Below are positions 8,642-30,227 of a DNA stretch of 64,000 nucleotides, one piece after another. The translations under genes were made by a program, and so were the position numbers. The stretch is from the NCBI GenBank assembly GCA_031412995.1, contig JANOEC010000028.1, forward strand, positions 15,458 to 79,457, read 5' to 3'. Every line of letters begins with the position of its first letter. The stretch's first letter is position 1. Under the pieces are notes generated by a model that was not told the DNA's origin, did not search any database, and saw only the letters and a list, made by a program, of their open reading frames with translations. The stretch comes from Geobacteraceae bacterium (GTDB lineage Bacteria; Desulfobacterota; Desulfuromonadia; Geobacterales; DSM-12255).

Positions 8642-8654
8642 GGAAGATAACGTA

Positions 8655-10431: not shown

Positions 10432-10884
10432 ATGAGAATGCGTAGTAATATCGCCTTATCAATCATGGTGCTGCTCCTGTTTGTCGTAGCAAAGACCGCA
10501 GCTGCCGGTCAACCAATGCCCTATACCGATGAGGCATTGGCGAAATTGCACCGGGCAAAGGTAAACTATAAGGCTCCAGGGGTAACTCCCGGCAATGATG
10601 ATGCAAAGATACGACTGTATATCGAACGACAACGGAGCATCTTTGCTGACGCCGGTTTTGATTATGACCGTTCAATCATCAGAATCATCAATGACATTCA
10701 GTTTGATCGGTATGCGGTAAATCGGACAACCATCGAACTAAATAACCTGGCCCGCGAACTGTTGCGCCTGCATGTCAATACTGGTATTAACCCCACAAAG
10801 CATCTTGGGGTGGGTTTTGGTCAGCTGCTCATTGATTTCCGGAACCTGATTCGCAGCAATTCTAAAAAGTATGGCGGCTGTTGA
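10432..10884 (+). CDS. secreted hypothetical protein (AT-richer than its neighbours)
   Basis: 150-aa ORF with a signal peptide (IALSIMVLLLFVVAKTAAAG). No family recognised. Confidence 0.5.
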   Translation: MRMRSNIALSIMVLLLFVVAKTAAAGQPMPYTDEALAKLHRAKVNYKAPGVTPGNDDAKIRLYIERQRSIFADAGFDYDRSIIRIINDIQFDRYAVNRTTIELNNLARELLRLHVNTGINPTKHLGVGFGQLLIDFRNLIRSNSKKYGGC

Positions 10885-10903
10885 GCCCTCAGGATATGGA
10901 ATT

Positions 10904-11992
10904 ATGATTAATACCGCAGTGCAAAAGCGTACAAAGGTAGTTATTGCCATGAGTGGCGGGGTTGACTCATCGGTCAGCGCGGCGTTGCTTAAAGAACAGG
11001 GGTATGAGGTAGTAGGGGTATCCCTGCAGCTGTATGATCCGATCCCGAAGGAACCTGGCTGCCGCAGCAAAACCTGCTGCTCGCTGGACGACGTGCTGGA
11101 CGCCGGCCGGGTGGCGATGAAGCTGGGTATCGATTTCGAAGTCATCGACATGCGCGCCGAGTTCAAACAGCTGGTGATCGATTATTTCATCGCCGAATAC
11201 GCGGCCGGCCGCACCCCCAACCCCTGCATTCGCTGCAATGAACTGATCAAGTTTGATCTGCTGCTGCAGAAGGCAAAGGAGCTGGGTGCCGACTTTCTGG
11301 CCACCGGTCATTACGCTCGGGTCGAAGCGGATGCTGCCGGACAGCAACGGCTGTTAACCGGACGTGATCCGGCCAAGGATCAGTCCTACTTCCTCTTTAC
11401 TTTGAGTCAGGCACAGCTGCAGCTGGTGCTGTTTCCCGTTGGTCAGCTGGAAAAGACAGAGGTCAGGCAGCTTGCCGTGAAATTTGCTTTACCGGTGGCG
11501 CAAAAGCATGAGAGCCAGGAGATCTGCTTCATTCCTGATAATGACTATGTGAAATTTCTGGAGACTCACGGCATCGCCCAGAACCCGGGTGAGATTGTGA
11601 CTAGGGATGGTTCGATTATTGGGCGGCACTCAGGATTACACCGTTATACAGTTGGCCAGCGCAAAGGGCTTGGCATTGCCTGGCCCCATCCGCTGCACGT
11701 AACCGATATTGATATTGCGCGAAACCGGTTGGTGGTTGGTGGATACGAAGAGCTGTCAACCTCCGTGTTAAGAGCTGCTCAGGCAACTTGGAGTGTGGCG
11801 CCGCCATCAGCTGAGTTCAGGGCAACCTGCCGCATCCGCTACCGGCACCAACCGGCAGACTGTACCGTCCACATGCTGGCCGATGACCGCTTTACCGTTC
11901 ATTTTGACACCCCGCAGACATCCGTGACCCCGGGCCAGGCCGCGGTTCTTTACAATGGTGATACCGTCATTGGCGGTGGATGGATTGAATAA
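10904..11992 (+). CDS. mnmA: tRNA 2-thiouridine(34) synthase
   Basis: Contains the [11 protein letters not shown]-loop, NPCIRCN and ATGHYAR. The start is taken at internal ATG 10904; ATG 10871 is also possible. Confidence 0.9.
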
Positions 11993-12003: not shown

Positions 12004-12909
12004 ATGAGCAAGAACCTGACGCACTTACAACAGCTGGAAGCGGAAAGCATCCAGATTCTCCGGGAAGTGGTGGCTGAATTCACCAACCCGGTGATGCTTT
12101 ACTCCATTGGCAAAGACTCGGCGGTCATGCTGCATCTGGCCCGCAAGGCCTTTTACCCGGCACCGCCACCGTTTCCACTGCTGCACGTGGACACCACCTG
12201 GAAGTTTCGCGAAATGATCCAGTTCCGGGACCGGATGGCGGCCGAATGTGGTCTCGACCTGATCGTTCATGTGAATGAGGAGGGGGTAAGGCTGGGGGTT
12301 TCCCCCTTTACCCACGGTTCGTCACTCTATACCGACATCATGAAGACTGAAGGGTTGAAGCAGGCGCTGAACAAGTATAAGTTCGACGCGGCCTTTGGTG
12401 GTGCCCGCCGCGATGAGGAAAAGTCGCGGGCCAAGGAGCGAATCTTCTCCTTCCGCAGCAAAAATCATCGCTGGGATCCAAAGGACCAGCGGCCGGAGCT
12501 CTGGAGTCTGTACAACACCCGGGTCAAACCGGGGGAAAGCATCCGGGTCTTTCCAATCTCCAACTGGACCGAACTGGATGTCTGGCAATACATTCACTTG
12601 GAACAGATTCCGATCGTACCGCTCTACTACGCGGCAGTCCGGCCGGTGGTGGAGCGGGACGGCATGCTGATCATGGTGGATGACGAGCGCATGGACCTGC
12701 GGCCAGGAGAAGAGATTCAGTACAAATCGGTTCGCTTCCGCACCTTGGGGTGCTACCCCCTGACCGGGGCGGTGGAATCGGAGGCAGATACTCTGCCGCA
12801 AATCAACCAGGAGATGCTCTTGACCAAGACCTCGGAGCGCCAGGGGCGGCTGATCGACCATGATTCGGCGGGGTCAATGGAAAAGAAGAAGCAGGAAGGA
12901 TATTTTTAA
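12004..12909 (+). CDS. cysD: sulfate adenylyltransferase subunit 2
   Basis: 301 aa. Contains [18 protein letters not shown] and a C-terminus of [12 protein letters not shown]. Confidence 0.95.
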
Positions 12910-12993: not shown

Positions 12994-14670
12994 ATGGCAC
13001 ACCAATCAGAGTTGATTGAACAAGATATCCTGGCCTACCTGAAGAGCCAGGAAGAAAAGTCGCTGCTCCGCTTTATCACCTGCGGTAGTGTTGACGACGG
13101 CAAAAGTACCCTGATTGGCCGTCTGCTCTGGGATTCCAAAATGGTCTTCGAGGATCAGCTGGCGGCCCTGGAGGCGGACAGTAAACGGGTCGGTACCCAG
13201 GGGGGCGCTATTGACTATGCCCTGCTGCTGGACGGGCTGCAGGCGGAGCGGGAGCAGGGGATCACCATTGATGTGGCCTATCGCTTCTTCTCCACTGACA
13301 ATCGCAAGTTCATCGTTGCCGACACCCCGGGCCACGAGCAGTATACCCGCAACATGGTAACCGGTGCCTCCACCGCCCAGGTAGCAGTGATCCTGGTGGA
13401 TGCCCGCAAGGGGCTGTTGACCCAGACCCGACGCCATAGTTTCCTGGTCTCCCTGGTTGGCATCAAGCATGTGGTGTTGGCAATCAATAAGATGGATTTG
13501 ATTGACTTTGATCAGGAGCGGTTCGATGCGATCGTGCGCGACTACCAGCAGTTCGCCGCCCCGCTCGGCTTTGCCTCCATTACCGCCATCCCGCTCTCGG
13601 CCTTGAATGGCGACAATATGATAGATGCCAGCGCGAACACCCCGTGGTACACCGGGCCGACCCTGATGCACTTTCTCGAGAACTTTGCGGTCGCCGGGGA
13701 TAACCGGGAGCAACCGTTCCGGATGCCGGTGCAGTGGGTAAACCGCCCCCATCTCGACTTCCGCGGTTTTTGCGGCACCATCGCCGCCGGTACGATCCGA
13801 CCGGGAGACGAGCTGCGGGTAGCCGCATCCGGGAGTGTCAGCCGGGTAGCTCGCATTGTCACCATGGGGGGCGATCTGGGGGAGGCAACCGCTGGCCAGG
13901 CCGTGACCCTGACCCTGGCGGACGAAATTGACGTCAGCCGGGGGGATATGCTGACCGCACCTGATGCGCCACCGCTCCATGCCCGCCATCCGGAGGCACA
14001 CCTGGTCTGGATGCATGACGAGCCGCTGCAGCTGGGGCAGGTCTACCTGGTCAGGACCGCGACGGCCATAACCCCTGGTCGGGTTACTGACATCCAGTAT
14101 GTGGTGGATGTCAATACCCTGGAGCAAAAGCAGGCACCGTCCCTCGGACTGAACGAAATAGGCGTGGCCCGCCTGGAGCTGGACCGCCCAATTGCCTTTG
14201 ATACTTATCAGCAGAACCGGGATACGGGCAGTTTCATCCTGATCGACCGCTTCAGCAACGCGACGGTGGCAGCCGGCATGGTAATCGCGACCGCGCCGGA
14301 CAACTTCCGGACCACCCACGAGGTATCGTTTACATCGGCTCCGGTAGTTGGTGATGTCCCGGCCAAACTGATCTCTTTGGGTGATAACGCCATTGGCGGC
14401 CATGGGGTAAGTCTGGTGGACCTGACCGGCGAGGAAAGTTCGCTGATATTTACCGTTGAAACCAGCTTTCTTGACTATCTTGGCCAGGGGAATAGGTTAC
14501 TGTTTCGTCTGCGTAATCTGGCACAGCTGGCAGCAGTGGCACAATTGGCGTATGAGCAGACCCTGTCGTTTGAATTTGACCGGACCGCAGATGGCGTGAG
14601 CCTGATGCTGTTTAAACGGAGTATCAGGCAGGAGAGCGGAGTGCATGCCGATGACGGAACCGGGATCTGA
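12994..14670 (+). CDS. cysN: sulfate adenylyltransferase subunit 1 (GTPase) with a C-terminal extension of about 115 aa of unknown type
   Basis: G-domain motifs [17 protein letters not shown] and NKMD are present. The protein is 558 aa versus about 475 aa for E. coli CysN as I recall it. The tail has no P-loop. Confidence 0.9.
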
Positions 14671-14839: not shown

Positions 14840-14868
14840 TTGACTTTATTAGTCGGGTTCGGTATTTA
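14840..14868 (+). promoter_or_regulatory. candidate sigma-70 promoter of the sbp operon
   Basis: TTGACT, 17 nt, TATTTA. CTATAG at 14875-14880 lies just downstream. Confidence 0.3.
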
Positions 14869-14967
14869 TAAAAACTATAGAAATTGTATTTAACTATTCC
14901 CCTCCGGCTGGGGGATTTATTTCACGCCTAAAATCTACCAAGTCTACAGACTACAAAGGAGCTTGAA

Positions 14968-15975
14968 ATGAAGACGACCCTGCTGCGGAAACTTGCTGCC
15001 GTAGCCACCCTGACCCTCACCCTGTCGATACCCGGTTTTGCCGCTGCCGATACCACGCTGCTCAATGTTTCCTATGACCCAACCCGTGAGTTGTACGCCG
15101 ATTTCAACAAGGTGTTTGCTGATTACTGGAAAAAGAAGACCGGTGAAACGGTCACCATCAAACAATCTCACGGTGGTGCCGGCAAGCAGGCCAGGGCGGT
15201 CATTGATGGGTTGGAAGCTGATGTGGTTACTTTGGCCCTGGCCTACGATATTGATGCTATCGCCGAAAAGGGTTTGATCAAACCGGGTTGGCAGAAGGAA
15301 CTTCCCCACAACAGTTCGCCCTACACCTCCACCATCGTCTTTCTGGTCCGGAAGGGCAATCCAAAGAATATCAAAAATTGGAACGATTTGGTGAAACCCG
15401 GGATTGCGGTTATTACTCCCAATCCGAAAACATCTGGTGGTGCCCGCTGGAACTATCTGGCAGCCTGGGCCTTCGCCAAGAATCAACCAGGCGGTAACGA
15501 TGCAAAAGCCAAAGAATTTGTAACTAAACTGTTCAAAAATGTGCCGGTTCTGGATTCTGGTGCTCGTGGTTCCACTAATACCTTTGCGCAGCGTGGTTTG
15601 GGGGATGTGTTGCTGGCCTGGGAAAATGAGGCATTTCTGGCAATCAATGAAATCGGCCCGGATAAGTTTGATATCGTAACCCCGCCGGAAAGCATTTTGG
15701 CTGAGCCGCCGGTGACGGTGATCGATAAGGTAGCAGACAAACACGGTACTCGCAAAGTCGCTGAAGAATACCTGAAGTATCTCTACACGGATGAGGGGCA
15801 GAAAATTGCCGCCAAACACTACTACCGGCCGATTAACCCGAAAATTCCGACCAAACTGGCCAAAGTGAAGAAGCTCTATACCATCGACAAGGATTTCGGT
15901 GGCTGGCAGAAGGCCCAGAAAGCACATTTTGCCGATGGCGGTCTGTTTGATCAGATTTACAGCCCTACGAAATAA
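14968..15975 (+). CDS. sbp: sulfate/thiosulfate ABC transporter substrate-binding protein
   Basis: 335 aa with a signal peptide. Contains [28 protein letters not shown] and [12 protein letters not shown]. Confidence 0.9.
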
Positions 15976-15982
15976 TCCCGCT

Positions 15983-16006
15983 GCGGGGCAGTTTCGACTG
16001 CCCCGC
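15983..16006 (+). promoter_or_regulatory. intercistronic 10-bp perfect stem-loop with a UUCG tetraloop
   Basis: GCGGGGCAGT-TTCG-ACTGCCCCGC lies between sbp and the cooS-like gene. No T-run follows. Confidence 0.6.
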
Positions 16007-16053
16007 CCATTCGAGTTTCATGGTACTGCCTGATCCCGAGCGAGAGGAAGCGC

Positions 16054-18081
16054 ATGACCAGTAAGCGAACATTTCCCAGTAAGGCCGATGTCATTGCCCT
16101 CACACCCGATCCAGCGGTGAGCGAGATGCTGGTTCATCTCGAACAGGCTGGCATCGAGACCACATTTGACCGCTTTGATGCCCAGAAACCCCATTGCGGT
16201 TTTGGACTCAACGGTACCTGCTGCAAAAACTGCCACATTGGCCCGTGCCGGATTACCGCCAAGAGTCCCAAAGGTGCCTGTGGTGCTGATGCCCATCTTA
16301 TTGTGGCGCGCAACATTCTTCGTTGGACTGCTGCAGGAGCAGCCGCTCACGGCGCTCGGGGCCGTGAGGTGATGCTGGCCCTCAAGGGTGCCGCCGACGA
16401 CAGCCTTGATCTGCCGATTCTCGGCCCGGAAAAGGTGGTTGCTTCGGCCAAGGCCTTTGGCATTTATGAAGAAACAAAATCGATCAAGGAGCTGGCCGGC
16501 GAAATAGCCTTGATTTTGCTGGACGATCTTTGCCGGACGTTACCGGGACCACACAAGACCCTGGAAGCCTTGGCCCCACCGGAACGGCTGCAGGTCTGGC
16601 GAGAGTTGGATATTCTGCCGATCGGCGCCTATCACGAGGTATTCGAAGCGCTGCATCGCACCACCACCGGCACCGATGGTGACTGGGAGAATGTTGTCCG
16701 GCAGATGCTCCGTTGCGGCCTGGCCTTTGCCTGGAGCAGTGTGGTTGGTTCAAGTATCGCCATGGACTGCCTCTATGGTCTGCCCAAGCGGAGCCGGATC
16801 AGCACCAACCTGGGGGTTATCAGCACGGACACAGTCAATATCGCGGTCCATGGCCATTCCCCGTTGCTGGTGGCAGCCATTGTCAAGGCCAGCCGGCGGG
16901 ACGATTTGATTTCTGGGGCACAGCAAGCGGGTGCCCGCACCATCCGACTTTATGGCATCTGCTGCTCAGGGCACTCGGCCCTGGCCAAGTTTGGTGAGGT
17001 GACGCCGCTTACCAATGCCGTTGGCGCGGAACTGGTCCTGGCTACCGGGGCCATGGACCTCTGGGTGGCGGATGTCCAGGATGTGTTCCCCGGGATCATG
17101 GATGTGGCAGCCTGCTTCCACACCCGGGTGGTCACCACCAGTGATTCGGCCCGGCTCCCCGGAGCCGAGCATATTGCCTTTGATCACCACCACAGCAATC
17201 TTGACCAGGCCGATGCTCTGGCTGAGCGGATCGTCCGTCGCGGCATCCAGGCCTATGGTGAGCGCCAGAGCGGCAAGGTTTTCATCCCAAAGGCGAGGAT
17301 GGAGGCGGAAGTAGGTTTTTCCGTCGAGAACATCCTCGCCACCTTCGGCGGTGTTGACGTGCTGCTGGAGCATCTGCGCAGCGGTCGCATCCGGGGGGTG
17401 GTGAACCTGGTGGGGTGCAACAACCCCAAGGTGGTCTTTGAGGAGGCGGTGGTCAAGGTGGCCGATGAATTGATTGCCCATGACGTGTTGGCGCTGACCA
17501 ATGGCTGTGCTGCCTATGCACTGCTGAAGCTTGGCTTCTGCCTACCGGAAGGGTTGGCCGCTGCGGGTCCCGGTCTTAATACTGCCTTGGCTCCGCATCA
17601 GCTGCCGCCGGTCTGGCACATGGGGGAATGCCTGGACAATGCCCGCGCATCGGCTTTTTTTCGCGCCATTGCCAATGCAGCCGCCGAGCCGCTCAAGCAC
17701 CTGCCGCTCGCCTTTTCCAGCCCGGAGTGGTCCAACGAAAAGGGGCTTGGCGCCGCCATGGGCTTTCGCCTGCTGGGACTGAATTCATACCACTGTCTTG
17801 CCCCGCCGGTCGCCGGCTCGGACAAGGTTGCCAACTTCATCTTTGCCGATACCCAGGAACTACTCGGTGCGGTTATGGTAGTCGACCCGGACCCAGTGGC
17901 CCTGGCCAGACGGATTGTGGCGGACTTTGATGCCCGGCGAGCGGCCATCGGTTGGTGCCAAAGTGCAAAACCTGCCGCGGCACGCTTGTCTGCACTGTGC
18001 AAGGAACAGGAACACGCCCATGCCCACGCGCATGGCCATCATCAAACCCATCACGAAATGGAGGAGCATCACCATGAATAG
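16054..18081 (+). CDS. CooS-type Ni-dependent carbon-monoxide dehydrogenase catalytic-subunit homologue with a His-rich C-terminal tail
   Basis: 675 aa. The N-terminal B/D-cluster Cys pattern is HCGFGLNGTCCKNCHIGPCRI...GACGADAH. Later motifs are VHGHSP, GICCSGHS, VGCNNPK, TNGCAAY and HMGECLDNA. The tail is HAHAHAHGHHQTHHEMEEHHHE. Confidence 0.85.
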   Translation: MTSKRTFPSKADVIALTPDPAVSEMLVHLEQAGIETTFDRFDAQKPHCGFGLNGTCCKNCHIGPCRITAKSPKGACGADAHLIVARNILRWTAAGAAAHGARGREVMLALKGAADDSLDLPILGPEKVVASAKAFGIYEETKSIKELAGEIALILLDDLCRTLPGPHKTLEALAPPERLQVWRELDILPIGAYHEVFEALHRTTTGTDGDWENVVRQMLRCGLAFAWSSVVGSSIAMDCLYGLPKRSRISTNLGVISTDTVNIAVHGHSPLLVAAIVKASRRDDLISGAQQAGARTIRLYGICCSGHSALAKFGEVTPLTNAVGAELVLATGAMDLWVADVQDVFPGIMDVAACFHTRVVTTSDSARLPGAEHIAFDHHHSNLDQADALAERIVRRGIQAYGERQSGKVFIPKARMEAEVGFSVENILATFGGVDVLLEHLRSGRIRGVVNLVGCNNPKVVFEEAVVKVADELIAHDVLALTNGCAAYALLKLGFCLPEGLAAAGPGLNTALAPHQLPPVWHMGECLDNARASAFFRAIANAAAEPLKHLPLAFSSPEWSNEKGLGAAMGFRLLGLNSYHCLAPPVAGSDKVANFIFADTQELLGAVMVVDPDPVALARRIVADFDARRAAIGWCQSAKPAAARLSALCKEQEHAHAHAHGHHQTHHEMEEHHHE

Positions 18082-19042
18082 ACGTGATTTTCTCAAGGCA
18101 TCCAGCCTCGCCCTGGCAGCTGCCGCCGCCCCAGGGCTGGTCGGTAACGTGTTTGCCGGTGGCGCCAAGGTCAACTTAAAGATTGGCTATCTTCCTATCA
18201 CCGATCATCTCCTGATGATTGCTGCCGAACGTGAACAGTTCAAAACTGTTGGTCTTCAGCCAATCAAGTTCTCTTCCTGGCCGGAGATTGCCGAGGCGCT
18301 CAAGGCCGGGGCAATTGATGGTGCGTTCCTGATCACCCCCATCGGATTGACCTTGCGGCAAAAGGGGGCGCCGGTAAAGGTCGTTCTGCTCGGGCACCGT
18401 AACGGCAGCGTGATCACTGTCAAGAATAGCGGTGAGATCAACCGGATCGAGGATCTGAAAGGGAAGATCATTGCTATCCCCAGCCCTTTTTCTACCCACA
18501 ACATCTTGTTGCGCAAAATTCTAACTGAAAAACATATCGATCCGACCAAGGATCTGAAGATCATCGACTTGCCGCCGCCAGAAATGGTCAACGCCTTGGC
18601 CACTGGCCGCATTCATGGCTACATCGTCGCCGAACCGTTCGGGGTCCAGGCGGAAGCTCAAAAGGTGGGCAAGATTCTTACGCTTTCCAAGGATATCTGG
18701 CGCGACCATATCTGCTGCGTGTTGAACTTACGGGAAACAGTCATCAGTTCACATCCGGAGGCAGTACAAGAACTGGTCAGTGGCTTCACCCGTACCGCCG
18801 CCTTTATTGAGGCCAACCCGGTTCTGGCGGCAAAGGGATCAACCAAGATTCTCGGGCAGAAACCGGAAATAATCGAAAAGGTGCTGACATCGCCCCGGGA
18901 TCGGCTGAGTTTCCTGAATCTGGTACCGAACAAAGCGGACTTTGCCGCCACTCAGGACTACATGGTGAAATTCGGCATTGCCAAAGACAAGGTTGATCTG
19001 GCGGGGTATTTGGACGATCGATTCGCCAAGAAGGCAGGGTAA
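18075..19042 (+). CDS. Tat-signal ABC substrate-binding protein, NitT/TauT (NrtA/SsuA/NMT1-like) family
   Basis: The ATG at 18075 overlaps the cooS-like stop by 7 nt. It has a twin-arginine leader MNRRDFLKASSLALAAAAAPG and the IGYLPITDHLLMIAAE motif typical of NrtA/SsuA-type binding proteins. Confidence 0.85.
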
Positions 19043-19045
19043 CGA

Positions 19046-19804
19046 ATGATTTCACGGCTACAAAAACTGGTGCTGCCGCTCTGTTCCCTGATTTTTTTTA
19101 TTGCGTTCTGGCAACTGGCGGCTAGCCGTTATCCTGCGGAACAGTTTCCGGCACCAATGGACGTGGTGCGGGCGATCAATGAATTGGCTGACAATGGCAC
19201 CCTCTGGGGGCATATCGGTATCAGTCTGGCCCGTTTCGCCGGTGCCTATCTGCTGGCGGTAATGGTGGCCATCCCGCTGGGGCTTTTCTTCGGTCGCTTC
19301 AGTCGCTGCCATGCCGCCATTGACCCGCTCATCCAGGTACTGCGCCCCATCTCACCAATCGCCTGGTTTCCCCTGGCGGTGCTCTGGTTCGGGATCGGTA
19401 ATGCCCCGGCGGTATTTATCATTTTTCTTGCCGCGTTCTACCCTGTGCTGCTCTCGACCATCAGTGCCGTGCGGGCCATTCCACCGCTCTATTTGAAGGT
19501 GGCCACCAATTTCGGGGCACGACCAGGGCTGACTTTTCTCCGGGTCATTGTTCCAGCAGCCTTCCCCGGCATCATGGTCGGCCTGCATATCGCCGTCGGT
19601 ACGGCCTGGATTCACCTGGTGGCAGGCGAGATGCTCGGTGCCCAGTCTGGTCTTGGCTTCATGATCGTTGATGCCCGCAACTTTCTCCGGACCGACCAGA
19701 TCATGGCTGGCATGCTGCTGGTTGGTATCCTTGGCTTGATCATCTATCGAGGAATGAAGGCAGTCGAGCACCTGGTCGGGCGACGCTGGGGAGTTATCTC
19801 GTGA
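19046..19804 (+). CDS. ABC transporter permease, NitT/TauT family
   Basis: 252 aa and multi-TM, with an EAA-like loop (ATNFGARPGLTFLRVIVPAAFPG). Confidence 0.85.
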   Translation: MISRLQKLVLPLCSLIFFIAFWQLAASRYPAEQFPAPMDVVRAINELADNGTLWGHIGISLARFAGAYLLAVMVAIPLGLFFGRFSRCHAAIDPLIQVLRPISPIAWFPLAVLWFGIGNAPAVFIIFLAAFYPVLLSTISAVRAIPPLYLKVATNFGARPGLTFLRVIVPAAFPGIMVGLHIAVGTAWIHLVAGEMLGAQSGLGFMIVDARNFLRTDQIMAGMLLVGILGLIIYRGMKAVEHLVGRRWGVIS

Positions 19805-20598
19805 GTATTTTGCCGCCAAAGATCCAGCTCCAGGGAGTTGAAAAGCGTTTTCGCTCGGCACGGGGCGAGGAACAGATCGCCCTCAATCAGGTTGATCTGG
19901 AAATCGGGGCCGGCGAGTTCACCTGCCTGGTGGGACCCAGCGGCTGTGGCAAGACTACCCTGATCAACCTGCTGGCCGGTTTTGAGCGGCCCACCAGCGG
20001 TTCAGTTCAGATCGACAGTAAACCGGTAATTGGCCCTGATCCGGACCATATCATGATTTTTCAGGATTACGGTCTCTATCCGTGGCGGACCGTTTTGGGT
20101 AATGTGCTTTTTGGCCTACAGGCCAAAGGTGTCCCGGCTGCCGAGGCGCGCGAAAAAGCCTTGGCAACTCTTGAACTGGTTGGCCTCCAGCAGGCAATCC
20201 ACAAGCATCCCCATGAACTGTCCGGTGGTATGAAGCAGCGGGTTGCCATTGCCCGGGCCCTGGCGGTTGAACCGAGCGTACTGTTTGTGGACGAGCCGTT
20301 TGCTGCCCTCGATGCCTTCACCCGCTTACGCTTGCAGGATGAGTTGCTGAACCTCTGGCAGAACAAAAAGCCGACCGTGGTTTTCGTCACTCACGATCTG
20401 GATGAGGCAATCACATTAGGGCAGCGTATTGTTTTGATGGCGCCAAATCCGGGGCGGATACAACGGGTGATCGAAGTTGGCCTGGCGTATCCCCGTGAAC
20501 GGACCAGTGCTGATTTTGCAACTGTGCGCCGGCAACTGTATAATGAATTTCATCTGGTGCATGAACAGGCCGCGTCTCAAGAAGAATTCACCATCTGA
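19801..20598 (+). CDS. ABC transporter ATP-binding protein, NitT/TauT family
   Basis: Contains Walker [10 protein letters not shown], the signature LSGGMKQR and Walker B LFVDEP. The GTG start overlaps the permease stop. Confidence 0.9.
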   Translation: MSILPPKIQLQGVEKRFRSARGEEQIALNQVDLEIGAGEFTCLVGPSGCGKTTLINLLAGFERPTSGSVQIDSKPVIGPDPDHIMIFQDYGLYPWRTVLGNVLFGLQAKGVPAAEAREKALATLELVGLQQAIHKHPHELSGGMKQRVAIARALAVEPSVLFVDEPFAALDAFTRLRLQDELLNLWQNKKPTVVFVTHDLDEAITLGQRIVLMAPNPGRIQRVIEVGLAYPRERTSADFATVRRQLYNEFHLVHEQAASQEEFTI

Positions 20599-20617
20599 GC
20601 AGGTGAAAGGAATCATC

Positions 20618-21456
20618 ATGTCGCAGTCCAGCAGGCGCACCACAGTTCTCCCCGGCTTTGGCCTGACCTTGGGTTACACCATTTTTTACCTCAGTATCAT
20701 TGTACTGATCCCACTGTCGGCATTGTTGTTCAAGACGGCGACCCTTACCTGGGCTGAGTTTGTGGCAGCGGTCACTTCTCCCCGGGTCATAGCCTCCTTT
20801 CGCCTGACCTTTGGCGCGGCCATTGCCGCGGCTCTGGTCAATGCGATCTGGGGGACGCTGGTGGCCTGGGTATTGGTGCGGTATCGTTTCCCTGGACGCA
20901 AGCTGATCGATTCGCTGGTTGACCTGCCGTTCGCCCTGCCAACGGCGGTGGCCGGTATCACCCTGGCCACAGTCTATTCGGCCAATGGCTGGTTGGGAAA
21001 GTATCTGGAACCACTGGGCATCAAGGTGGCCTTTTCGCCGCTCGGCATCGCGGTGGCCATGGTGTTCATCGGGCTCCCTTTTGTCGTGCGCACCGTCCAA
21101 CCCGTACTGGAAGAGCTGGAACCGGAACTGGAAGAAGCAGCGGCCTGCCTCGGCGCCAACCGCTGGCAGACCATCACCCGCATCCTGCTACCGGCTGTCA
21201 CCCCGGCCATTATCACCGGCTTTGCCCTGGCATTTGCCCGGGGGGTAGGGGGGTAGGGGAGTACGGCTCCATTATCTTCATCGCCGGTAACATGCCGATG
21301 AAATCGGAGATCACCCCGCTGTTGATCATCACCAAGCTGGAGCAGTACGATTACGCCGGGGCCACGGCCATCGCCACGGTCATGCTGGCCATTTCGTTTC
21401 TGATGCTGCTGGTGATCAATCTGCTGCAGAAATGGACCCGGCGCTACACCGCCTAA
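20618..21456 (+). pseudogene. cysT: sulfate ABC permease CysT, interrupted by an 8-bp tandem duplication
   Basis: The N-terminal part runs 20618-21256 and ends ...FARGVGG*. The remainder, [36 protein letters not shown]...RRYTA*, continues in another frame to 21456. GGGTAGGG is duplicated at 21243-21258. Confidence 0.8.
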
Positions 21457-21466
21457 AGGACAAACC

Positions 21467-22333
21467 ATGGCCAACACCAATCACAATAGCCGTACCGATC
21501 AAGCTCGCCGGCAGCTGAGCGAACCGTTGCTGGTCCGCTGGCTGTTGATTGCCACGGCCCTGCTGTTTCTGACCCTGTTCCTGTTCGTGCCGCTGGCCTC
21601 GGTGTTCAGTGAAGCCCTGGCCAAGGGGTGGGACACCTATCTGGCGGCGCTTAAGGAGGCTGACACCTGGTCGGCCATCAAGCTGACGCTGCTGGTAGCG
21701 GTCATCAGTGTTCCCCTGAATCTATTCTTCGGCCTGGCCGCTTCCTGGGCCATTGCCAAATTCGAGTTCCGCGGCAAAAGCCTGCTGATCACCCTGATCG
21801 ACCTGCCGTTTTCCGTGTCGCCGGTCATTTCCGGTTTGATCTACGTGCTGATGTTCGGCCTGCAGGGGTGGATTGGCCCCTGGCTGCAGGATCATGACAT
21901 TAGGATCATTTTTGCCGCGCCGGGCATTATCCTGGCGACGATCTTTGTGACCTTTCCCTTTGTTGCCCGCGAATTGATCCCGCTTATGGAATCCCAGGGG
22001 TGCGAAGAGGAAGAGGCGGCACTGACCCTGGGCGCCAGCGGTCTGCAGACCTTCTTCCGCGTGACCTTTCCCAATATCAAGTGGGGCATCCTGTATGGCG
22101 TGATTCTCTGTAACGCCCGGGCCATGGGGGAGTTTGGCGCAGTATCGGTAGTATCCGGCCATATCCGGGGGATGACCAATACAGTGCCGCTGCAGGTGGA
22201 GATTCTCTACAACGAATACAACTATGCCGCTGCCTTTGCCGTTGCCACGCTGCTGGCCCTGCTGGCACTGGTGACCCTGGTGATTAAGAGCTGGGTAGAG
22301 TTCAGGATGAGACAACAGGAGATACGGTCATGA
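21467..22333 (+). CDS. cysW: sulfate ABC transporter permease CysW
   Basis: 288 aa and multi-TM. Contains the EAA loop ([26 protein letters not shown]). Confidence 0.9.
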
Positions 22334-23397
22334 GTATTGACGTTCGCGGTGTGAGCAAGCAATTCGGCCAATTCACGGCCCTGCAGGATATTTCGCTGAC
22401 AGTGCCGTCGGGTGAACTGGTGGCGCTCTTGGGGCCGTCCGGTTGCGGCAAGACCACACTGCTCCGGATCATTGCCGGGCTGGAATCGCCGGACGCGGGC
22501 GAGATCCTGTTCAACGGCCAAAACGCCCGGCAGAATGTCCAGGAGCGGCAGGTCGGCTTCGTCTTTCAGCATTATGCGCTGTTTCGCCACATGACCGTTT
22601 TCGACAATATTGCCTTTGGCCTGACCGTCAAGCCGCGCAGTTCGCGGCCATCGAAAGACAAAATCAAGGAACGGGTAAAAGAACTACTGTCACTTATCCA
22701 ACTTGAAAACATTGCCGATCGCTATCCATCCCAACTCTCCGGTGGCCAGCGGCAGCGGGTGGCCTTGGCGAGAGCCTTGGCGGTGGAACCACAGGTGTTG
22801 TTGCTGGATGAGCCGTTCGGGGCGCTGGACGCCCAAGTGCGCGTTGAACTCCGCCGCTGGCTGCGCCGGCTGCACGATGAGATTCATGTTACCAGTGTAT
22901 TTGTTACCCATGATCAGGAAGAGGCGCTGGAGGTGGCGGATCGGATTGTGGTGATGAACAAGGGGAAAATCGAGCAGCAGGGGACGCCGGATGAAGTTTA
23001 TGACAAGCCGGCGACACCATTTGTCTTCGATTTCCTCGGCAACGTCAATCTTTTCCATGGCCGGGTGCATGAAGGCCAGGCAAAACTTGGTGGCATTGCC
23101 GTCGCCTCCCCAGAGCATGCCGGCGCCACGAACGCCACGGCTGTTGGCTATGTTCGCTCCCACGACATTGAATTGGAGCGGATTCCATCCGATGATACGG
23201 CGATTGAAGCAACGGTCGTTTCCATCCACTCAGTCGGTCCGGTAGTGCGGGTCGTTCTGGTTTCCACAGCCGAGGGAACAGCACTGGAAGCGGATATCTC
23301 CCGGGATGTGGCTGATCGCCTGCAACTGAAAAAAGACGAAACTCTTTTTGCCCGACCGCGCAAGGTGCATCTGTTTGTCGATGATTATCAGATTTAG
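22330..23397 (+). CDS. cysA: sulfate ABC transporter ATP-binding protein CysA
   Basis: Contains Walker [18 protein letters not shown] and LLLDEP, plus a C-terminal TOBE-like regulatory domain. Confidence 0.95.
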
Positions 23398-23764
23398 GAA
23401 TGAGATCTTGGGAGTAGTGCATGCACCAGAATACCAATAAAATTTTGCGACAACAGACTGCACTCCTGGGGGCATATAGAACCCTGCCCATGGTCGTATC
23501 GTTGACTTTACGGATATCCGTTCCCTTTACCTGAACATGGAGAAGGGTCGCGCCGAAGGAATTGGGGAAAAGCCTGAAGGAGATCGACGAGGCCAGACGC
23601 AAGCTGCTGTACCGGATCGCGCGGGTGATGGCACGATAACATCCTGTCCGCGTTGCCCCCTGATACATCCACCACCATCTTCGCTGCGGTAGATCAGGAA
23701 CTGATTCGTTTCTTCATTCATTTTCTTACTCCTGCTGATCTGCTTAATGATATTTATTCCCGCT

Positions 23765-24055
23765 CTATAATCGCCATTCCTTGCGATGTTCTGCAAGATT
23801 CTGTAGGGCTGGCCAAAGATCCCGGTCGGAGGGGGGAATGATGCCGCGACCTGAGAGGGTCATCAGAAAGCCGGGAACGTTGGGATCGGCGGCGATCTGG
23901 CGAGAGGTGATGACACCGCGATGCACCAAGTCCAGTAATGCCAACAGCAGAAGCGGCTTGTGCGGGGCCTTGCGTTTGGTGGCCTCAGTCCAGCTCGCGC
24001 CAGGGGCGCGGTTGAGGGAGGCGAAGTGTTTGATGGAGGTGGTGAGGTCGGTCAT
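23765..24055 (-). pseudogene. N-terminal fragment of a restriction-endonuclease-like (HNH_2-associated) protein
   Basis: The 96-aa ORF carries RKAPHKPLLLLALLDLVHRGVITS. I recall this motif from N-termini of HNH-type restriction proteins. The ORF ends without a nuclease domain. Confidence 0.35.
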
Positions 24056-24205
24056 GGTTTTCAGAATGATTACGTATTTGTATGGAGTTGAGACACGACC
24101 CCTATATGCCCGACCCCTATATGTCTCTCTCGATCAGAAACAGAAAAAAAGCGGCTTGAAATCCTGACTGCCGTACTATATAGTATCTAATGCCATAGGG
24201 TAAAC

Positions 24206-24495
24206 GTGAAAGCAAAGCAGATTTTTAAGGAAAAATAGCGGAAGGCGGTTATATTCAGGAGCAGGTTGTATGGCTCCTTGATACGCCTGTTACAGGTTGC
24301 CGACACCTCTTCAAGTATCGACTCTATTTTGGAACTGATGATGGGGTTTGTCTCGTTCGGTATGACAATGAGCGGGGCAAGGGAGACCATAAACATTTTG
24401 CGGGGATTGAATCCCCGTATTCTTTCAGCACAATGGAAACTGCATTCGCCGATTTTATTGCAGACGTAGACAGCATATTACAAAATGAGGATTGA
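24206..24495 (+). pseudogene. TumE-family (DUF6516) toxin, frameshifted in an A5 run
   Basis: Reads VKAKQIFKEK*, then resumes in a shifted frame with IAEGGYIQEQVVWLLD...FKYRLYFGTDDGVCLVRYDNERGKGDHKHFAG...ILQNED*. The shift is at 24231-24235. Confidence 0.55.
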
Positions 24496-24859
24496 AATCA
24501 TGAGAGACTTCAAGGTTGGAATAAAGAGCCGTGAAGAGGCAAACAAGGAAACTTCAGCGATATTTGCTCAGTTCGACAAAGGCATTTTTCCTGAACAGGC
24601 TGTTGAGCGTGTTTACTTTCATGATGTAAAAACATTCCTCAAGTACATTACGCCAAAACGGTTTGAGTTATTGGATAATCTCCACCACAACGGAGCGACC
24701 AGTGTCAGAGCATTGGCAAAGTTGCTGAATCGGCATTACAAAAATGTGTTCGATGACGTAAAGCTGCTGGAGCAGATCGGGCTGGTGGAGAAGGACGAGG
24801 CCGGTCTTTATTCGGTTCCATGGGATGAAGTGTCGGTATCGTTCAAGCTGGCCATGTAA
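24485..24859 (+). CDS. HTH (MarR/TumA-like) antitoxin-type DNA-binding protein
   Basis: 124 aa. ITPKRFELLDNLHHNGATSVRALAKLLNRHYKNVFDDVKLLEQIGLVEKDE has the winged-HTH pattern. It lies immediately after the TumE-like gene. An alternative start is ATG 24500. Confidence 0.65.
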   Translation: MRIEIMRDFKVGIKSREEANKETSAIFAQFDKGIFPEQAVERVYFHDVKTFLKYITPKRFELLDNLHHNGATSVRALAKLLNRHYKNVFDDVKLLEQIGLVEKDEAGLYSVPWDEVSVSFKLAM

Positions 24860-24944
24860 CGAGACAGGAATCAGAACATCATGGATAAAGAACTTTTTGA
24901 TCAATTGCACCAGAGCATGAAAGAGGCGGGAATACCGTTTTCCC

Positions 24945-25973
24945 TCAATTCCCTTCCAGCAGTCGTTTGATCTGTTTATCAAAGTCCGATTCGAACAGCC
25001 TATCCTGCACAACCCGGTATTTTTCAAATTCACTTTCCGCAAAGGCCCTAGCGATTTCCTGGGTGACTTTCCCAGGATTGTCGAGGATCTCCCGTTCATT
25101 GAACTGTAAAAAAGCATTCAGCTTGCCTGCCCAATCCTCCATGGTCATGGGGATGTTCCGCTCGGCCTGATCTTCGGCATAGTCAAGATACATGGTTACG
25201 AAGCGATCCAGGGACTTCAGCTCTTTTTCATTCAGGTAATTCTTGGCAACCACAACATCGGTCTTGATGATCTTGCCGTCCGGGGCGTTCTTCCAGGTGG
25301 TCAGTCCCATTCGCTCCTTATGGTGGTCGGCACGCTGCACGATAAGCTCTGCGGCGGTCTGGCCATGGATAGCAAAGTGCAGTTTGTTCTGCACCGTGGC
25401 GAAAAAGGTCCGGGTAATTTCGGAATCGGCGCGGTAATCCATGGCCGTGGCGTAGATGTCGGTGATTTTCTGGTAGAACTTCCGCTCACTGGCGCGGATT
25501 TCGCGGATTTCCGCCAGCAGCGTATCAAAATATTCCTTGCTGAAAAATGCGCCGTTTTTGAGGCGTTCCTTGTCCAGCACATAGCCACGGATGGCGAAAT
25601 CCCGCAGAACACCGGTAGCCCACTGGCGGAACTGGGTTGCCCGCGCCGAGTTGACGCGATAGCCGACTGAAATAATGGCATCGAGGCTGTAGCAGTCAAC
25701 ATTCCTGGAAACCTCCCGATTTCCCTCTTTTTGAACTATTCGGAAATTCCGAACAGTTGCCTCCTGAGTGAGTTCCCCCTGCTGGTATATATTGGCCAGG
25801 TGTTCGCTAACCGTTGGTACAGAGACTTCAAACAGTACGGCAATCAGCTTTTGTGTCAGCCAGACGGTCTCATCCTCAACACGCACTTCGATACTGTTTT
25901 CTCCTGCCTGTCTGGAAAATATCAGGAATTCGGCGGTGCTGTTCCTGATGCGTAGGTTTTTCTCTTTGGTCAT
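24945..25973 (-). CDS. RhuM-family virulence-associated protein
   Basis: 342 aa. Contains IEVRVEDETVWLTQKLIAVLFEVSVPTVSEHLANIYQQGEL and the YSLDAIISVGYRVNSARATQFRQWAT core. Confidence 0.85.
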   Translation of the reverse strand: MTKEKNLRIRNSTAEFLIFSRQAGENSIEVRVEDETVWLTQKLIAVLFEVSVPTVSEHLANIYQQGELTQEATVRNFRIVQKEGNREVSRNVDCYSLDAIISVGYRVNSARATQFRQWATGVLRDFAIRGYVLDKERLKNGAFFSKEYFDTLLAEIREIRASERKFYQKITDIYATAMDYRADSEITRTFFATVQNKLHFAIHGQTAAELIVQRADHHKERMGLTTWKNAPDGKIIKTDVVVAKNYLNEKELKSLDRFVTMYLDYAEDQAERNIPMTMEDWAGKLNAFLQFNEREILDNPGKVTQEIARAFAESEFEKYRVVQDRLFESDFDKQIKRLLEGN

Positions 25974-26011
25974 GGTGTTTTCTCCACAGGATAGAAAACT
26001 GACGAAAACTA

Positions 26012-26179
26012 CTAATTTGAAATATTATACTTTTTCAGCCATTGACCAAAATTCACACGTTCCAAGCCGAGCAACTTTGCAGCTTTAGCCTTATTTCCGC
26101 CGGTTCTATCCAAGGCTTTCATGAGGTAATGCCGAGTAACCTCATCGTTGAGATCATGAATACTAAAACCTTCGTAAAA
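26012..26179 (-). pseudogene. C-terminal Fis-type HTH remnant of a sigma-54-dependent (NtrC-family) activator
   Basis: The reverse strand reads ...HYLMKALDRTGGNKAKAAKLLGLERVNFGQWLKKYNISN*. No AAA+ domain lies upstream, and an in-frame stop sits directly 5'. Confidence 0.5.
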
Positions 26180-26473
26180 TTAACGCGATAGAATGTTATC
26201 ATCTAAAGGCAAGGTCATATTAAAAATCAGCAATTTCTGGCACTACGTTAAATGATTTATCAAGGTGGCGCTTCTCTTATGTAACTTGTCAAATGAATCC
26301 ACCTGTACTTGCCGATAATTTGGTAGTGAACTACGCAGAATCTGCCCGTAATCTTGAAAGAGTATGGCGATTAGAATATGGATGGCCATTGTTATGCCGC
26401 ATTTAGGGAGGCACTGCCAAAACCGCCAAAAGCCCTTCTGACAGTTTTGACAGTGCCGTCCGTCATGATTCCA

Positions 26474-26773
26474 TCAGCATTTTATCCCAGGATTCAACCG
26501 GATTCTCTCCGTCGGCCTCCCTCCAGTCTGTTCCTTCTCGACCGTCAGCCAGTCATACTCAACCAGCACCTCGATCCCGGCCTTGACCTCTTCCGACGAG
26601 GTGAGTTTCGACCATTGGGGCCGCCAGATTTCTCGCAGCGTTGCGCCATCCCTGATTGCTCCCCGGCGAAGATGCTTGATGATTTCCCTTGCTGCTTCCA
26701 TTCCTGGTGCGACCATCCCGCCGTAAAGTCTGTAGGCGTGACTCTCCAGGTAATCACACCATGCCGTCGCCAT
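26474..26773 (-). pseudogene. C-terminal fragment of a DUF3987 (YfjI/P4-primase-associated) protein
   Basis: WCDYLESHAYRLYGG...LREIWRPQWSKLTSSEEVKAGIEVLVEYDWL...TGGRPTERIRLNP resembles the DUF3987 C-terminus. The body of the gene is absent. Confidence 0.4.
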
Positions 26774-26810
26774 GAACGCCGCCTGTTCCGATACTGGACC
26801 CGGTTCATTG

Positions 26811-27096
26811 ATTTAGGTTCCGGGACGAGACGATGTTTTTCAAGGTGCCCCCTGCCGGGCTCATTGGCAACTTGGCCGAGTATCCGATTACAAAGGGCCA
26901 TTCGCTTTTCCGGATCAACTTCCTCACGTAAAGCCTGTTCAAGAACCTTGGCAACAAACGATGCGTACAAACCAGGTTGCTCTTCCGGATCGAGCTTACC
27001 GAAGACGGTTCGTAATTCAGGGCGCTGAGCAAGTGCATCGCTCAGGAACTCATCAAGCAGTGCTTCATATATGCCGTGGGCTAACGCCTTCATCAA
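26811..27096 (-). pseudogene. N-terminal fragment of an SF2 helicase-like (DUF3427-type) protein
   Basis: The first 95 codons or so (GIYEALLDEFLSDALAQRPELRTVFGKLDPEEQPGLYASFVAKVLEQAL) look protein-like. The ORF then degenerates into an R/S/G-rich out-of-frame read-through of the DUF3987 fragment. Confidence 0.3.
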
Positions 27097-27527
27097 GAAT
27101 TTGCCTGCAGTTCTGAAAGGTAAGATTGGATAACCGGCACGTCAGCTTCAGCCCAATCGAGAGAGTACAGTTTCTCAGGTGTAAGCCAGGCAGTCGCTGC
27201 ATGTTCGAGGAGGACAATCTCTCCTGATTCGATTGAGCAAACAAAAGGATAAAGCGTCACTGCAAATGTTGGATATTCGTGCGATGTGGCAGGAAGGCTT
27301 TTCTCAATGCTAACGGCAATGCCCAATTCTTCAACTATCTCTCGTCGCAGGCACTCTTCAGCGGATTCACCATGATCAATTTTGCCACCAGGAAATTCCC
27401 ATTTGAGTGGCAATTTCATGGCCGTGCTCCGCTGAGCAGCCAGAACAAGTCCATCCCGTTCAATGATCGCGCAGGTTACGTGAATATGCTGCAACAGGTT
27501 ATGATCCATCAGGCATTCACCCCGCAC
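27093..27527 (-). CDS. NUDIX hydrolase (MutT-like)
   Basis: Nudix box GGKIDHGESAEECLRREIVEELGI. The stop overlaps the ATG of the helicase-like fragment (ATGA). The true start may be Met-7 (27509). Confidence 0.8.
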   Translation of the reverse strand: MRGECLMDHNLLQHIHVTCAIIERDGLVLAAQRSTAMKLPLKWEFPGGKIDHGESAEECLRREIVEELGIAVSIEKSLPATSHEYPTFAVTLYPFVCSIESGEIVLLEHAATAWLTPEKLYSLDWAEADVPVIQSYLSELQANS

Positions 27528-27563
27528 CCTGCAGACATTTTCCCAGTTGTTGGATTGAAAAAC

Positions 27564-30203: not shown

Positions 30204-30227
30204 AGTATCCTGTATGCGACAAACGAA

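Follow-up and report, generated by a model that had tools for sequence, protein, structure and literature searches.

Clade B of the nickel-containing carbon monoxide dehydrogenases (Ni-CODH) is found together with an ATP-binding cassette (ABC) importer of the NitT/TauT type, and this pairing is a published hallmark of the clade (PMC6344411, PMC13056359, PMC13592312). According to Inoue et al. (2019), NitT/TauT ABC components (COG0715, COG0600, COG1116) accompany every group of clade B, and nickel import was proposed as their role (PMC6344411). ABC genes were present in 64% of the clade B operons of a 2026 eLife study. RfCODH, the clade B enzyme of Ruminococcus flavefaciens described in 2026, oxidises CO at 13 mU/mg and shows no CO2 reduction; its gas channels are blocked and it has 0.2-0.5 Ni per monomer (PMC13592312). 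Hydroxylamine was reduced at 0.066 U/mg, with no turnover of nitrate or bicarbonate, and the alternative substrates tried were only nitrate, bicarbonate/CO2 and hydroxylamine, with no sulfur compound among them (PMC13592312). In the same paper the CODH is reported to co-evolve with the binding protein of the importer, which is predicted to bind a metal through two Cys and one or two His, and the authors conclude that the substrate is an unidentified compound imported via the ABC system (PMC13592312). One paper holds that the function of clade B cannot be deduced from its genomic environment, and a 2024 gut survey lists a minor 'cysteine synthase' context without comment. Here, a clade B cassette is described from 64,000 nucleotides of a Geobacteraceae bacterium (GenBank assembly GCA_031412995.1, contig JANOEC010000028.1, positions 15,458 to 79,457 of the forward strand), the whole of which is referred to as the window. 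The four genes at 16054-20598 are a clade B cassette, which may have been recruited to the sulfur regulon as an oxygen-independent sulfur-scavenging module, a reading to which we give a probability of about 0.55. The link to sulfur assimilation itself is supported by three independent kinds of computational evidence.

The 675-aa enzyme of the window is assigned, on its residues, to structural group B-3 of clade B, since each of the features of that group is present, the signatures of the clade are present, and these features are essentially invariant across 81 homologues. Group B-3 is defined by a type II D-cluster, the C-cluster ligands H-C-D-C-C-C, retention of the His and Lys, and a C-terminal His-rich region (PMC6344411). 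In the window enzyme, Asp343 takes the place of the second C-cluster Cys (Cys333 in ChCODH-II numbering), with ADVQD343VFP aligned to DYQCIMP or DVQCIMP of the solved CODHs. Asp is found at this position in 81/81 homologues and the other ligands (His and four Cys) are invariant. The acid-base His and Lys are retained, and the C-terminal tail (...EHAHAHAHGHHQTHHEMEEHHHE) has 11 His among its last 45 residues, with His-X-His repeats. The D- and B-cluster cysteines C48, C56, C57, C60, C65 and C76 are each present in 80/81 sequences, type II being assigned from the motif. Bohm et al. (2026) give as signatures of clade B a Glu and a Leu at ChCODH-II His99 and His102 and a Ser or Leu at Asn262 (PMC13592312); the matching E105, L108 and S269 of the window are present in 79, 80 and 80 of the 81 homologues.

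Over 100% of the query, the enzyme is 84% identical to WP_012645460.1 (P0017) of Geotalea daltonii, the B-3 representative chosen by Inoue et al. 2019 (PMC6344411). Its closest database relatives (84-90% identical) are from Geobacter and Geotalea, and relatives from Chromatiaceae, Chlorobiaceae and Magnetospirillum are 74-82% identical. A sequence-only reading made earlier of the same DNA had called the protein a CooS homologue. It does belong to the CODH family (PF03063, TIGR01702), but it is not a full CooS: the exchange of a C-cluster Cys for Asp leaves the canonical ligand set of His and five Cys incomplete, and TIGR01702 is only just passed. Identity as a hybrid-cluster protein (HCP) was rejected, TIGR01703 giving 18.4 bits against a cutoff of 360.8. 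The four-gene module had been taken for an undescribed arrangement; it is the published clade B cassette and thus not of a new kind, the pair of CODH and NitT/TauT importer being already published. What is not stated for clade B in the searchable literature is a link to sulfur assimilation, and the earlier remark that no CODH-family enzyme has a described role there agrees with that literature, in which none was found.

Pfam and NCBIfam profiles and tblastn place the cassette amid a 21-kb island of co-directional sulfur-assimilation genes (Table 1). For comparison, one genome per GTDB species was scanned, giving 80 homologous loci (numbered with an L) with CODH relatives 57-89% identical. Among these, L001 is Geobacter sp. 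OR-1, to which the genes of the window have identities of 77-93%. Gene families were assigned via Pfam and NCBIfam profile scans, with tblastn in addition. Sulfur genes were counted per locus by tblastn up to 10 kb from the cassette, and comprised sulfate-transport genes, cysD/N/H, sulfite reductase, CysK, CysE, MetY/PF01053, PatB, and family-2A encapsulin or cysteine-desulfurase cargo.

The sequence-only reading had named beforehand, as grounds for its own rejection, a lack of recurrent linkage of homologues to NitT/TauT importers or sulfur genes. That ground does not hold. Importer genes accompany the CODH in about 76 of the 80 loci. Sulfur genes recur near close and distant homologues in 36 loci, 34 by the stricter tblastn core set plus two Clostridial loci with a PF01053 gene directly upstream. 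About 20 loci have such a gene no more than 1 kb from that of the CODH. Eight higher taxa are represented among the 36: Geobacterales, Chlorobiaceae, Chromatiales, Rhodocyclales, Rhodoplanes, Verrucomicrobia, Lentisphaerae and Clostridia. When the flanking open reading frames (ORFs) were clustered, the four commonest neighbour families outside the cassette were all sulfur genes, these being the MetY / Cys-Met pyridoxal phosphate enzyme family (18 loci), CysK (10 loci), Sbp (9 loci and the window) and CysT/W (8 loci and the window). The next commonest were family-2A encapsulin with cysteine-desulfurase cargo, PatB C-S lyase, CysE, APS reductase, RidA, and Rrf2- and CysB-family regulators, one of the latter adjoining the cassette in L034 and L049. 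No unrelated real family was present in more than about 5 of the 80 loci.

Within the Geobacterales, the proximity to sulfur genes is kept despite a changing arrangement. Sbp and cysT enclose the cassette in the window and in L001, L022 and L023; L013 and L030 have it in divergent orientation to sbp-cysTWA or cysTWA, and in L029 it comes straight after cysN.

A palindromic element, TCTATAAA-N-TTTATAGA, is shared by promoters of cysK, sbp, a MetY operon and stand-alone CODH cassettes in the Geobacterales. It was found by comparing the DNA upstream of CODH starts, where a TTGACA-type promoter is followed by a conserved AT-rich element in L003 (9959), L004 (4418), L008 (3603) and L028 (9954), 41-47 nt upstream of the CODH start. 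Copies 71-108 nt before sbp in L022 (8879) and L023 (1412) were neither of them used to define the motif, and a perfect palindrome at L016:3289 heads a MetY operon. The window has two matches at 3 or fewer mismatches against 0.07 expected, one ahead of cysK and one at the putative sbp promoter. The degenerate form of the motif has 7 exact matches in 1.4 Mb, all of them on the CODH strand and in promoter-like positions; overall, there are 25 matches compared to about 9 in shuffled sequence. Ten of the Geobacterales matches are at CODH, sbp, cysK or MetY-operon promoters or, in the single case of L003:14598, ahead of a radical-SAM/ABC cluster downstream of the cassette.

Co-regulation of the module with sulfur assimilation, as had been proposed from the window, is thus supported both by tight or overlapping gene junctions and by an operator common to the sbp, cysK and stand-alone CODH promoters. 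This computational evidence suggests that one regulator controls the sulfur-assimilation operons and the CODH cassettes, for which the Rrf2 protein encoded at 2668-3129 is a plausible candidate. Membership of a sulfur-starvation regulon would fit the operator at the sbp, cysK, MetY and CODH promoters and the CysB- and Rrf2-family regulators by some loci. A scan for consensus promoters and terminators between 10.5 and 24.5 kb is uninformative, because it returned no more sites than shuffled sequence.

It is possible to combine these observations into a scheme of anaerobic sulfur scavenging. Limitation for sulfur would derepress the sbp promoter, where the operator overlaps the -10 and the Rrf2 protein is the candidate repressor, and sbp, the cassette and cysTWA would be transcribed as a single mRNA. 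The binding protein would be exported in a folded state through the twin-arginine translocation (Tat) system, its Cys-Cys/His pocket probably metal-loaded, and would capture a small sulfur-containing solute to be brought in by the ABC importer. In the cytoplasm, the clade B enzyme would be supplied with low-potential electrons via the D and B clusters, which are intact, and its Asp-ligated Ni-Fe-S cluster would reductively cleave the solute to sulfide, or to sulfide and sulfite. The co-regulated CysK, MetY-type sulfhydrylase and sulfite reductase would then fix the product into cysteine and homocysteine. We infer that sulfur status controls the cassette, and likewise infer which way transport runs, that the chemistry is reductive and what the substrate may be. 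Thiosulfate or polysulfide, sulfonates or sulfinates, carbonyl sulfide (COS) or monothiocarbonate, and thiocyanate are all compatible with this enzyme family's chemistry, none is favoured by the data, and confidence in any particular one is low. The R. rubrum CODH is reported to reduce COS. The hosts appear to be anaerobes, many from sulfide-poor, iron-rich or host-associated habitats.

Several points weigh against sulfur scavenging. There is no sulfur gene in the available flanks of 44 of the 80 loci, and the well-assembled G. daltonii and Thioflavicoccus mobilis have a stand-alone cassette with no sulfur genes within 10 kb, which argues against universality. As many of the loci are related, the 36 are not 36 independent events and amount to roughly 10-12 distinct arrangements. 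For a random gene, the background rate was put at a few percent of loci for a sulfur neighbour of any kind and well below 1% for an immediate one, which is an estimate with no measured control gene set behind it. The operator was partly defined from sites at which it was afterwards found, and the DNA ahead of sbp in L001, L013 and L029 gave no match to it. An Rfam scan at the gathering threshold, covering the window and 15 mostly Clostridial loci, gave RNase P only, with no S-adenosylmethionine (SAM) riboswitch or T-box before the Clostridial cassettes. The Cys and His residues of the binding pocket could instead mean a metal-ion cargo. Because cysT is frameshifted, the operon may be decaying or the assembly imperfect. 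Activity towards sulfur compounds and expression of the cassette are predictions drawn from sequence.

A Cys-Cys pair (C214 and C215 in the window) is invariant in 75 CODH-linked binding proteins, and His108 and His142 are 97% and 96% conserved in the same set. The nearest solved structure, 3UN6 of Staphylococcus aureus, has the same Cys and His residues. The pair aligns with the Gly-Lys of the nitrate-binding-type domain in the ATPase subunit of a cyanobacterial nitrate/bicarbonate transporter (PDB 9uai), the Lys of which we take to contact the ligand. As judged from these residues, the pocket is unlike those of SsuA, TauA, NrtA and CmpA. It suits a soft metal-coordinating or thiol-reactive ligand, and a metal cargo is equally possible. 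About half of the CODH-linked binding proteins, including that of the window, carry a twin-arginine motif, which fits export in a folded, possibly metal-loaded state. These proteins are mildly Met/Cys-poor (2.4% versus 3.1% background), which is weak support because secreted proteins are generally Cys-poor.

Assignment of the importer to a characterised system was rejected in each case tried, all scores being below the model cutoffs. For SsuABC/TauABC, the binding protein scores 147 against 163.5 (SsuA_fam) and 58 against 304 (TauA), and the permease and ATPase score 155 against 342 (TauC), 125 against 347 (SsuC) and 234 against 357 (TauB). For NrtABCD/CmpABCD, the scores are 134 against 209 (NrtB) and 242 against 292 (NrtCD), with the Gly-Lys of the pocket replaced by Cys-Cys. 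For the Sao transporter, they are 82 against 300 (SaoX), 175 against 295 (SaoP) and 237 against 360 (SaoA), and this similarity was not used as evidence.

The same pocket, with its invariant Cys-Cys pair and two conserved His, would also suit a role in sulfur or Fe-S economy without cleavage of a substrate. Here the importer would take up sulfide, a metal-thiolate or an Fe-S species that the CODH homologue stores or relays, or the enzyme would act on sulfite or another intermediate from within the cell. Gene neighbourhoods and the operator support such a role just as they do sulfur scavenging, genes for encapsulin and cysteine-desulfurase cargo immediately precede the CODH gene in L014 and L015 and are close to it in L032, L034, L049 and L055, and the Asp ligand is expected to render the C-cluster labile (PMC13592312). 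However, the D and B electron-transfer clusters are intact and the acid-base His and Lys are conserved, which favours redox catalysis over storage, and a sulfite-reductase-like protein is already encoded in the window. We regard this explanation as unlikely.

The order first described for the window, running from sbp through a UUCG hairpin, the CooS homologue, binding protein, permease, ATPase, cysT and cysW to cysA, all on the + strand, agrees in coordinates and families with the Pfam and NCBIfam results. The 4.5-kb cassette splits an operon in which Sbp, CysT and CysW score above their TIGR cutoffs and CysA above TIGR00968. The tight spacing, given as 80 nt or less, was found to be 78 nt or less, the spacer between sbp and the CODH gene being 78 nt. 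The stop of the CODH gene overlaps the ATG of the binding protein by 8 nt (ATGAATAG) and not by 7 nt as had been stated. A gap of 3 nt follows between binding protein and permease, then an overlap of 4 nt between permease and ATPase, a gap of 19 nt between ATPase and cysT, and an overlap of 4 nt between cysW and cysA.

The hairpin noted between sbp and the CODH gene is real, with a 10-bp stem (GCGGGGCAGU/ACUGCCCCGC) at 15983-16006 on the + strand. The entire spacer folds at -32.1 kcal/mol (z = -2.7). The hairpin is kept at the equivalent junction in L019, L022 and L023, with a compensatory change. No U-tract is present 3' of it, hence an mRNA 3'-stabiliser or attenuator behind the abundantly needed Sbp is more likely than a terminator. 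Between the hairpin and the CODH gene is a leader of about 30 nt (16020-16053), TGCATGATCCC(G/A)AG(C/A)GAGAGGAAGCGC-ATG, that is nearly identical in L001, L005, L019, L022, L023 and L029. This leader is limited to Geobacteraceae loci with the cassette after sbp or cysN, plus L005, in which the upstream gene is cut by the contig end. Its conservation exceeds that of the surrounding coding sequence and it may be a translational control element or merely reflect recent common ancestry.

The cysT gene is present in the operon as described, but it is not intact, as an 8-bp tandem duplication shifts its frame. The repeated sequence GGGGGGTA is at 21240-21247 and 21248-21255 and is followed by GGGGAGTA. 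The frame is broken after residue 212, the first frame ends at 21256, and the C-terminal 65 codons are in another frame, to the TAA at 21454-21456. In Geobacter sp. OR-1 cysT is intact. The duplication could mean that cysT is truly a pseudogene, that the tract is prone to slippage or that the assembly is wrong here.

A fortuitous landing of a mobile four-gene cassette in sbp-cysTWA, its function unrelated to sulfur, would be in keeping with the frameshifted cysT, with self-contained cassettes in unrelated contexts (L083, L084) and with identities of 75-90% across phyla, which suggest horizontal transfer. Yet neither mobility genes nor repeats flank the insertion between 14.6 and 23.4 kb, sulfur genes are repeatedly linked to the cassette, in many different arrangements and across eight higher taxa, and stand-alone cassettes have the operator of the sbp and cysK promoters. 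We therefore consider chance insertion improbable.

Two further explanations concern the chemistry of the enzyme. An HCP-like nitrogen chemistry, in which a nitrogen oxyanion or cyanate is imported and hydroxylamine, NO or nitrite is reduced, could draw on the hydroxylamine activity of RfCODH (0.066 U/mg), on nitrate and bicarbonate binders being the nearest solved binding proteins after 3UN6, and on NrtB and NrtCD being among the top model matches, though below cutoffs. It is hardly probable, as RfCODH gave no turnover of nitrate or bicarbonate and its authors called hydroxylamine a questionable substrate (PMC13592312), no nitrogen-assimilation gene is recurrent among the neighbours, the HCP model reaches 18 bits against a cutoff of 361, and Cys-Cys stands in place of the Gly-Lys of the nitrate-binding-type domain (9uai). 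The least probable is the 2019 proposal of ordinary CO metabolism with a nickel importer, whereby Ni2+ brought in by the ABC system would be held by the His-rich tail and CO would be the substrate oxidised: the 11 His in the last 45 residues, the CooC-like ATPases (with His-rich N-termini) encoded just ahead of the CODH in 9 loci, the 0.2-0.5 Ni per monomer of RfCODH and the Cys and His lining the binding pocket all fit it, but the window ORFs scanned include no CooF, hydrogenase or acetyl-CoA synthase (ACS) partner, nickel binders have about 500 aa whereas the binding proteins here have about 300 aa, and neither the near-absent CO activity nor the sulfur neighbourhoods are explained. Nickel is probably still part of the enzyme, given the His-rich tail and the CooC-like ATPases upstream in 9 loci. 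We know of no NitT/TauT importers that carry metal cations, which also counts against the nickel proposal.

The statement that the window has no cooF, cooC, acs or hydrogenase genes holds for the ORFs scanned with Pfam and NCBIfam, among which there was no match, a few smaller ORFs being outside the scan; a tblastn search of the window with a CooC-like protein likewise found nothing. Elsewhere, in nine loci that belong to the 62-65% identity group (L034, L035, L036, L039, L040, L049, L055, L057 and L061), the gene just ahead of the CODH, at a distance of 0-36 nt, encodes a CooC-like (MinD/ParA-type) ATPase, often with a His-rich N-terminus, and this suggests that the clade B enzymes of such loci still receive nickel.

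Other recurrent neighbours of the cassette were recorded. The family-2A encapsulin shell and cysteine-desulfurase cargo adjoin it in Chlorobiaceae, Verrucomicrobia, Chromatiales and Rhodocyclaceae (L014:104-1396, L015:6569-10004, L032:20212-21171, L034:21009-21869, L049:800-1729 and L055), with the end of the cargo gene coinciding with the CODH start in L014 and L015. Four loci have a second conserved cluster near the cassette (L003:15764-20221, L008:8354-12858, L030:15996-19971 and L040:102-3237), in which genes for a permease, an ATPase and an NMT1-like binding protein are combined with those for a variant radical-SAM protein and a small protein; the palindromic operator precedes it in L003. 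A protein of the acyl-CoA-dehydrogenase fold is encoded between importer and CODH at L039:7802-9016, L040:7855-9012, L051:15010-16149 and L056:5420-6508. Its candidature as an organosulfur enzyme was rejected and it is not used as evidence, the sulfinopropanoyl-CoA desulfinase/SfnB models giving only 32-41 bits, far below cutoffs, and the PDB matches being generic acyl-CoA dehydrogenases.

Table 1. Genes and regulatory sites of the sulfur-assimilation island in the window
Feature	Position	Strand	Basis and remarks
Rrf2-family regulator, island head	2668-3129	+	TIGR00738, 113 bits (cutoff 73); CymR and IscR models below cutoffs
Operator copy 1, TCTATAAGGTCTATAGA	3149-3165		2 mismatches; 20 nt past Rrf2 stop, 44 nt before cysK GTG
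cysK	3209-4162	+	Pfam/NCBIfam, tblastn; GTG start
OscA-like ORF, 60 aa, directly after cysK	4162-4344	+	Sulfur starvation response protein OscA model, weak: 36 bits (cutoff 85)
MetY-type sulfhydrylase	4880-6130	+	Pfam/NCBIfam, tblastn
ThiS-like carrier	ends 6365	+	Pfam/NCBIfam, tblastn
ThiF/MoeB-like activator	6365-7174	+	Pfam/NCBIfam, tblastn
JAB protease	7177-7575	+	Pfam/NCBIfam, tblastn
Sulfite-reductase-like protein	7646-8641	+	Pfam/NCBIfam, tblastn
LarE-like sulfur transferase	8607-9503	+	Pfam/NCBIfam, tblastn
APS/PAPS reductase	9728-10429	+	Pfam/NCBIfam, tblastn
mnmA	10871-11992	+	77-79% identity to mnmA in L001 and L022
cysD	12004-12909	+	NF009214, 551 bits
cysN	12994-14670	+	NF003478, 690 bits
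Putative sbp promoter	14840-14881	+	TTGACT, 17-nt spacer, TATTTA (sequence reading)
Operator copy 2, TTTATAAAAACTATAGA	14865-14881		Motif search; overlaps -10, ends 87 nt before sbp ATG
sbp	14968-15975	+	NF008022, 523 bits; no Met/Cys beyond initiator Met
CooS homologue, 675 aa	16054-18081	+	PF03063, 464 bits; TIGR01702, 497 bits (cutoff 478)
NitT/TauT binding protein	18074-19042	+	NMT1_2; Tat signal above Pfam and TIGR cutoffs, motif RRDFLK
NitT/TauT-family permease	19046-19804	+	BPD_transp_1
Importer ABC ATPase	19801-20598	+	ABC_tran
cysT, interrupted	20618-21456	+	TIGR02139, only profile positions 1-202 of 265
cysW	21467-22333	+	TIGR02140, 408 bits
cysA	22330-23397	+	CysA_C_terminal and TOBE_3 domains; passes TIGR00968

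The block from the MetY-type sulfhydrylase to the sulfite-reductase-like protein (4880-8641) is also found in L022 and partly in L029. On the 3' side of cysA (23400-31300), the G+C content falls from about 57% to 48%, and island-type genes follow, including a RhuM-family protein at 24945-25973 and an AbiEi/AbiEii toxin-antitoxin pair at 27564-29254. Further along, 57145-61644 on the - strand encodes a 1499-aa protein with twelve RCC1 repeats and several immunoglobulin-like domains.

For the function of clade B, the window and its 80 relatives point to sulfur. Extended to the whole clade, the sulfur-scavenging interpretation would mean that the clade B 'CO dehydrogenases' are not CO enzymes but a widespread and hitherto unrecognised oxygen-independent class of sulfur-acquisition enzymes that, with their importer and its Cys-Cys/His-pocket binding protein, reductively free sulfide for CysK or MetY from a sulfur compound taken up. 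They would then be the Ni-Fe-S counterpart of TauD/SsuD and of the nitrogenase-like methylthio-alkane reductase (MAR) and isethionate reductase (ISR). This generalisation is tentative, at slightly less than even odds. If true, it would name a substrate class for thousands of annotated 'anaerobic carbon-monoxide dehydrogenases' of gut, rumen, termite, sediment and lake anaerobes, and would correct the CO-metabolism inferences made from cooS counts in metagenomes. It would also add a third metallocluster route, after MAR and ISR, to sulfur without O2-dependent desulfonating enzymes.

Among known systems, the published B-3 system of clade B is the closest to that of the window, with 84% identity, the Asp ligand, the outer proton-relay Glu/Leu, the Ser after the ligand His and the His-rich tail in common. 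It likewise has an adjacent binding protein, permease and ATPase, and CooF and CooC are likewise missing from the window ORFs scanned. The window differs in having the cassette inside sbp-cysTWA, within a 21-kb sulfur island. Canonical CooS, such as ChCODH-II and that of R. rubrum, is matched in fold (Prismane/CODH), in the cysteines of the D- and B-clusters, in all but one of the six C-cluster ligands and in the catalytic His and Lys. The window enzyme differs from these in the change of Cys333 to Asp and an altered histidine proton relay; no CooF, CooC, hydrogenase or ACS partner was found with it among the ORFs scanned, and its characterised clade-mate is almost inactive with CO. With HCP and the HCP-like clade D CODH (ChCODH-V) it has in common the superfamily and a carboxylate at the active cluster, and the clade-mate RfCODH also shows weak reduction of hydroxylamine. 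However, the carboxylate of the window type replaces Cys2 and not Cys1, and Ni is present in RfCODH.

The surroundings of the cassette, rather than the cassette, resemble the clusters for thiocarboxylate-dependent synthesis of homocysteine and cysteine, namely HcyS-HcyF-HcyD-MetY-Sir of Wolinella and CysO-CysM-Mec-MoeZ of Mycobacterium. The block at 4880-8641 is alike in gene content, a likeness by domain content only.

In tauABCD and ssuEADCB, which scavenge sulfonate sulfur in aerobes and facultative bacteria, a NitT/TauT importer is encoded with the sulfur-freeing enzyme and both operons belong to the sulfur-starvation regulon, as the cassette of the window would. Of the NCBIfam models, SsuA_fam fits the binding protein of the window best, although all of the Ssu and Tau models are below their cutoffs, and SsuA and TauA lack the invariant Cys-Cys pair and the two His of the clade B binding proteins. 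TauD and SsuD need O2, whereas the clade B enzyme is an oxygen-sensitive Ni-Fe-S protein of anaerobes.

Low sulfate induces the nitrogenase-like MAR and ISR, complex metalloenzymes that have been repurposed to salvage sulfur anaerobically (PMC13474568). Together with ISR, a 26-kb region shows induction of ssuCAB, cysE, cysK and sufS, and MAR feeds an O-acetylhomoserine sulfhydrylase of the MetY type (PMC13474568). MarBHDK and IsrBHDK are of an unrelated family, being nitrogenase-like, ATP-dependent and of two components, and the CODH cassette is known from its sequence. The logic would be common to them, with a metallocluster reductase that frees assimilable sulfur under anoxia.

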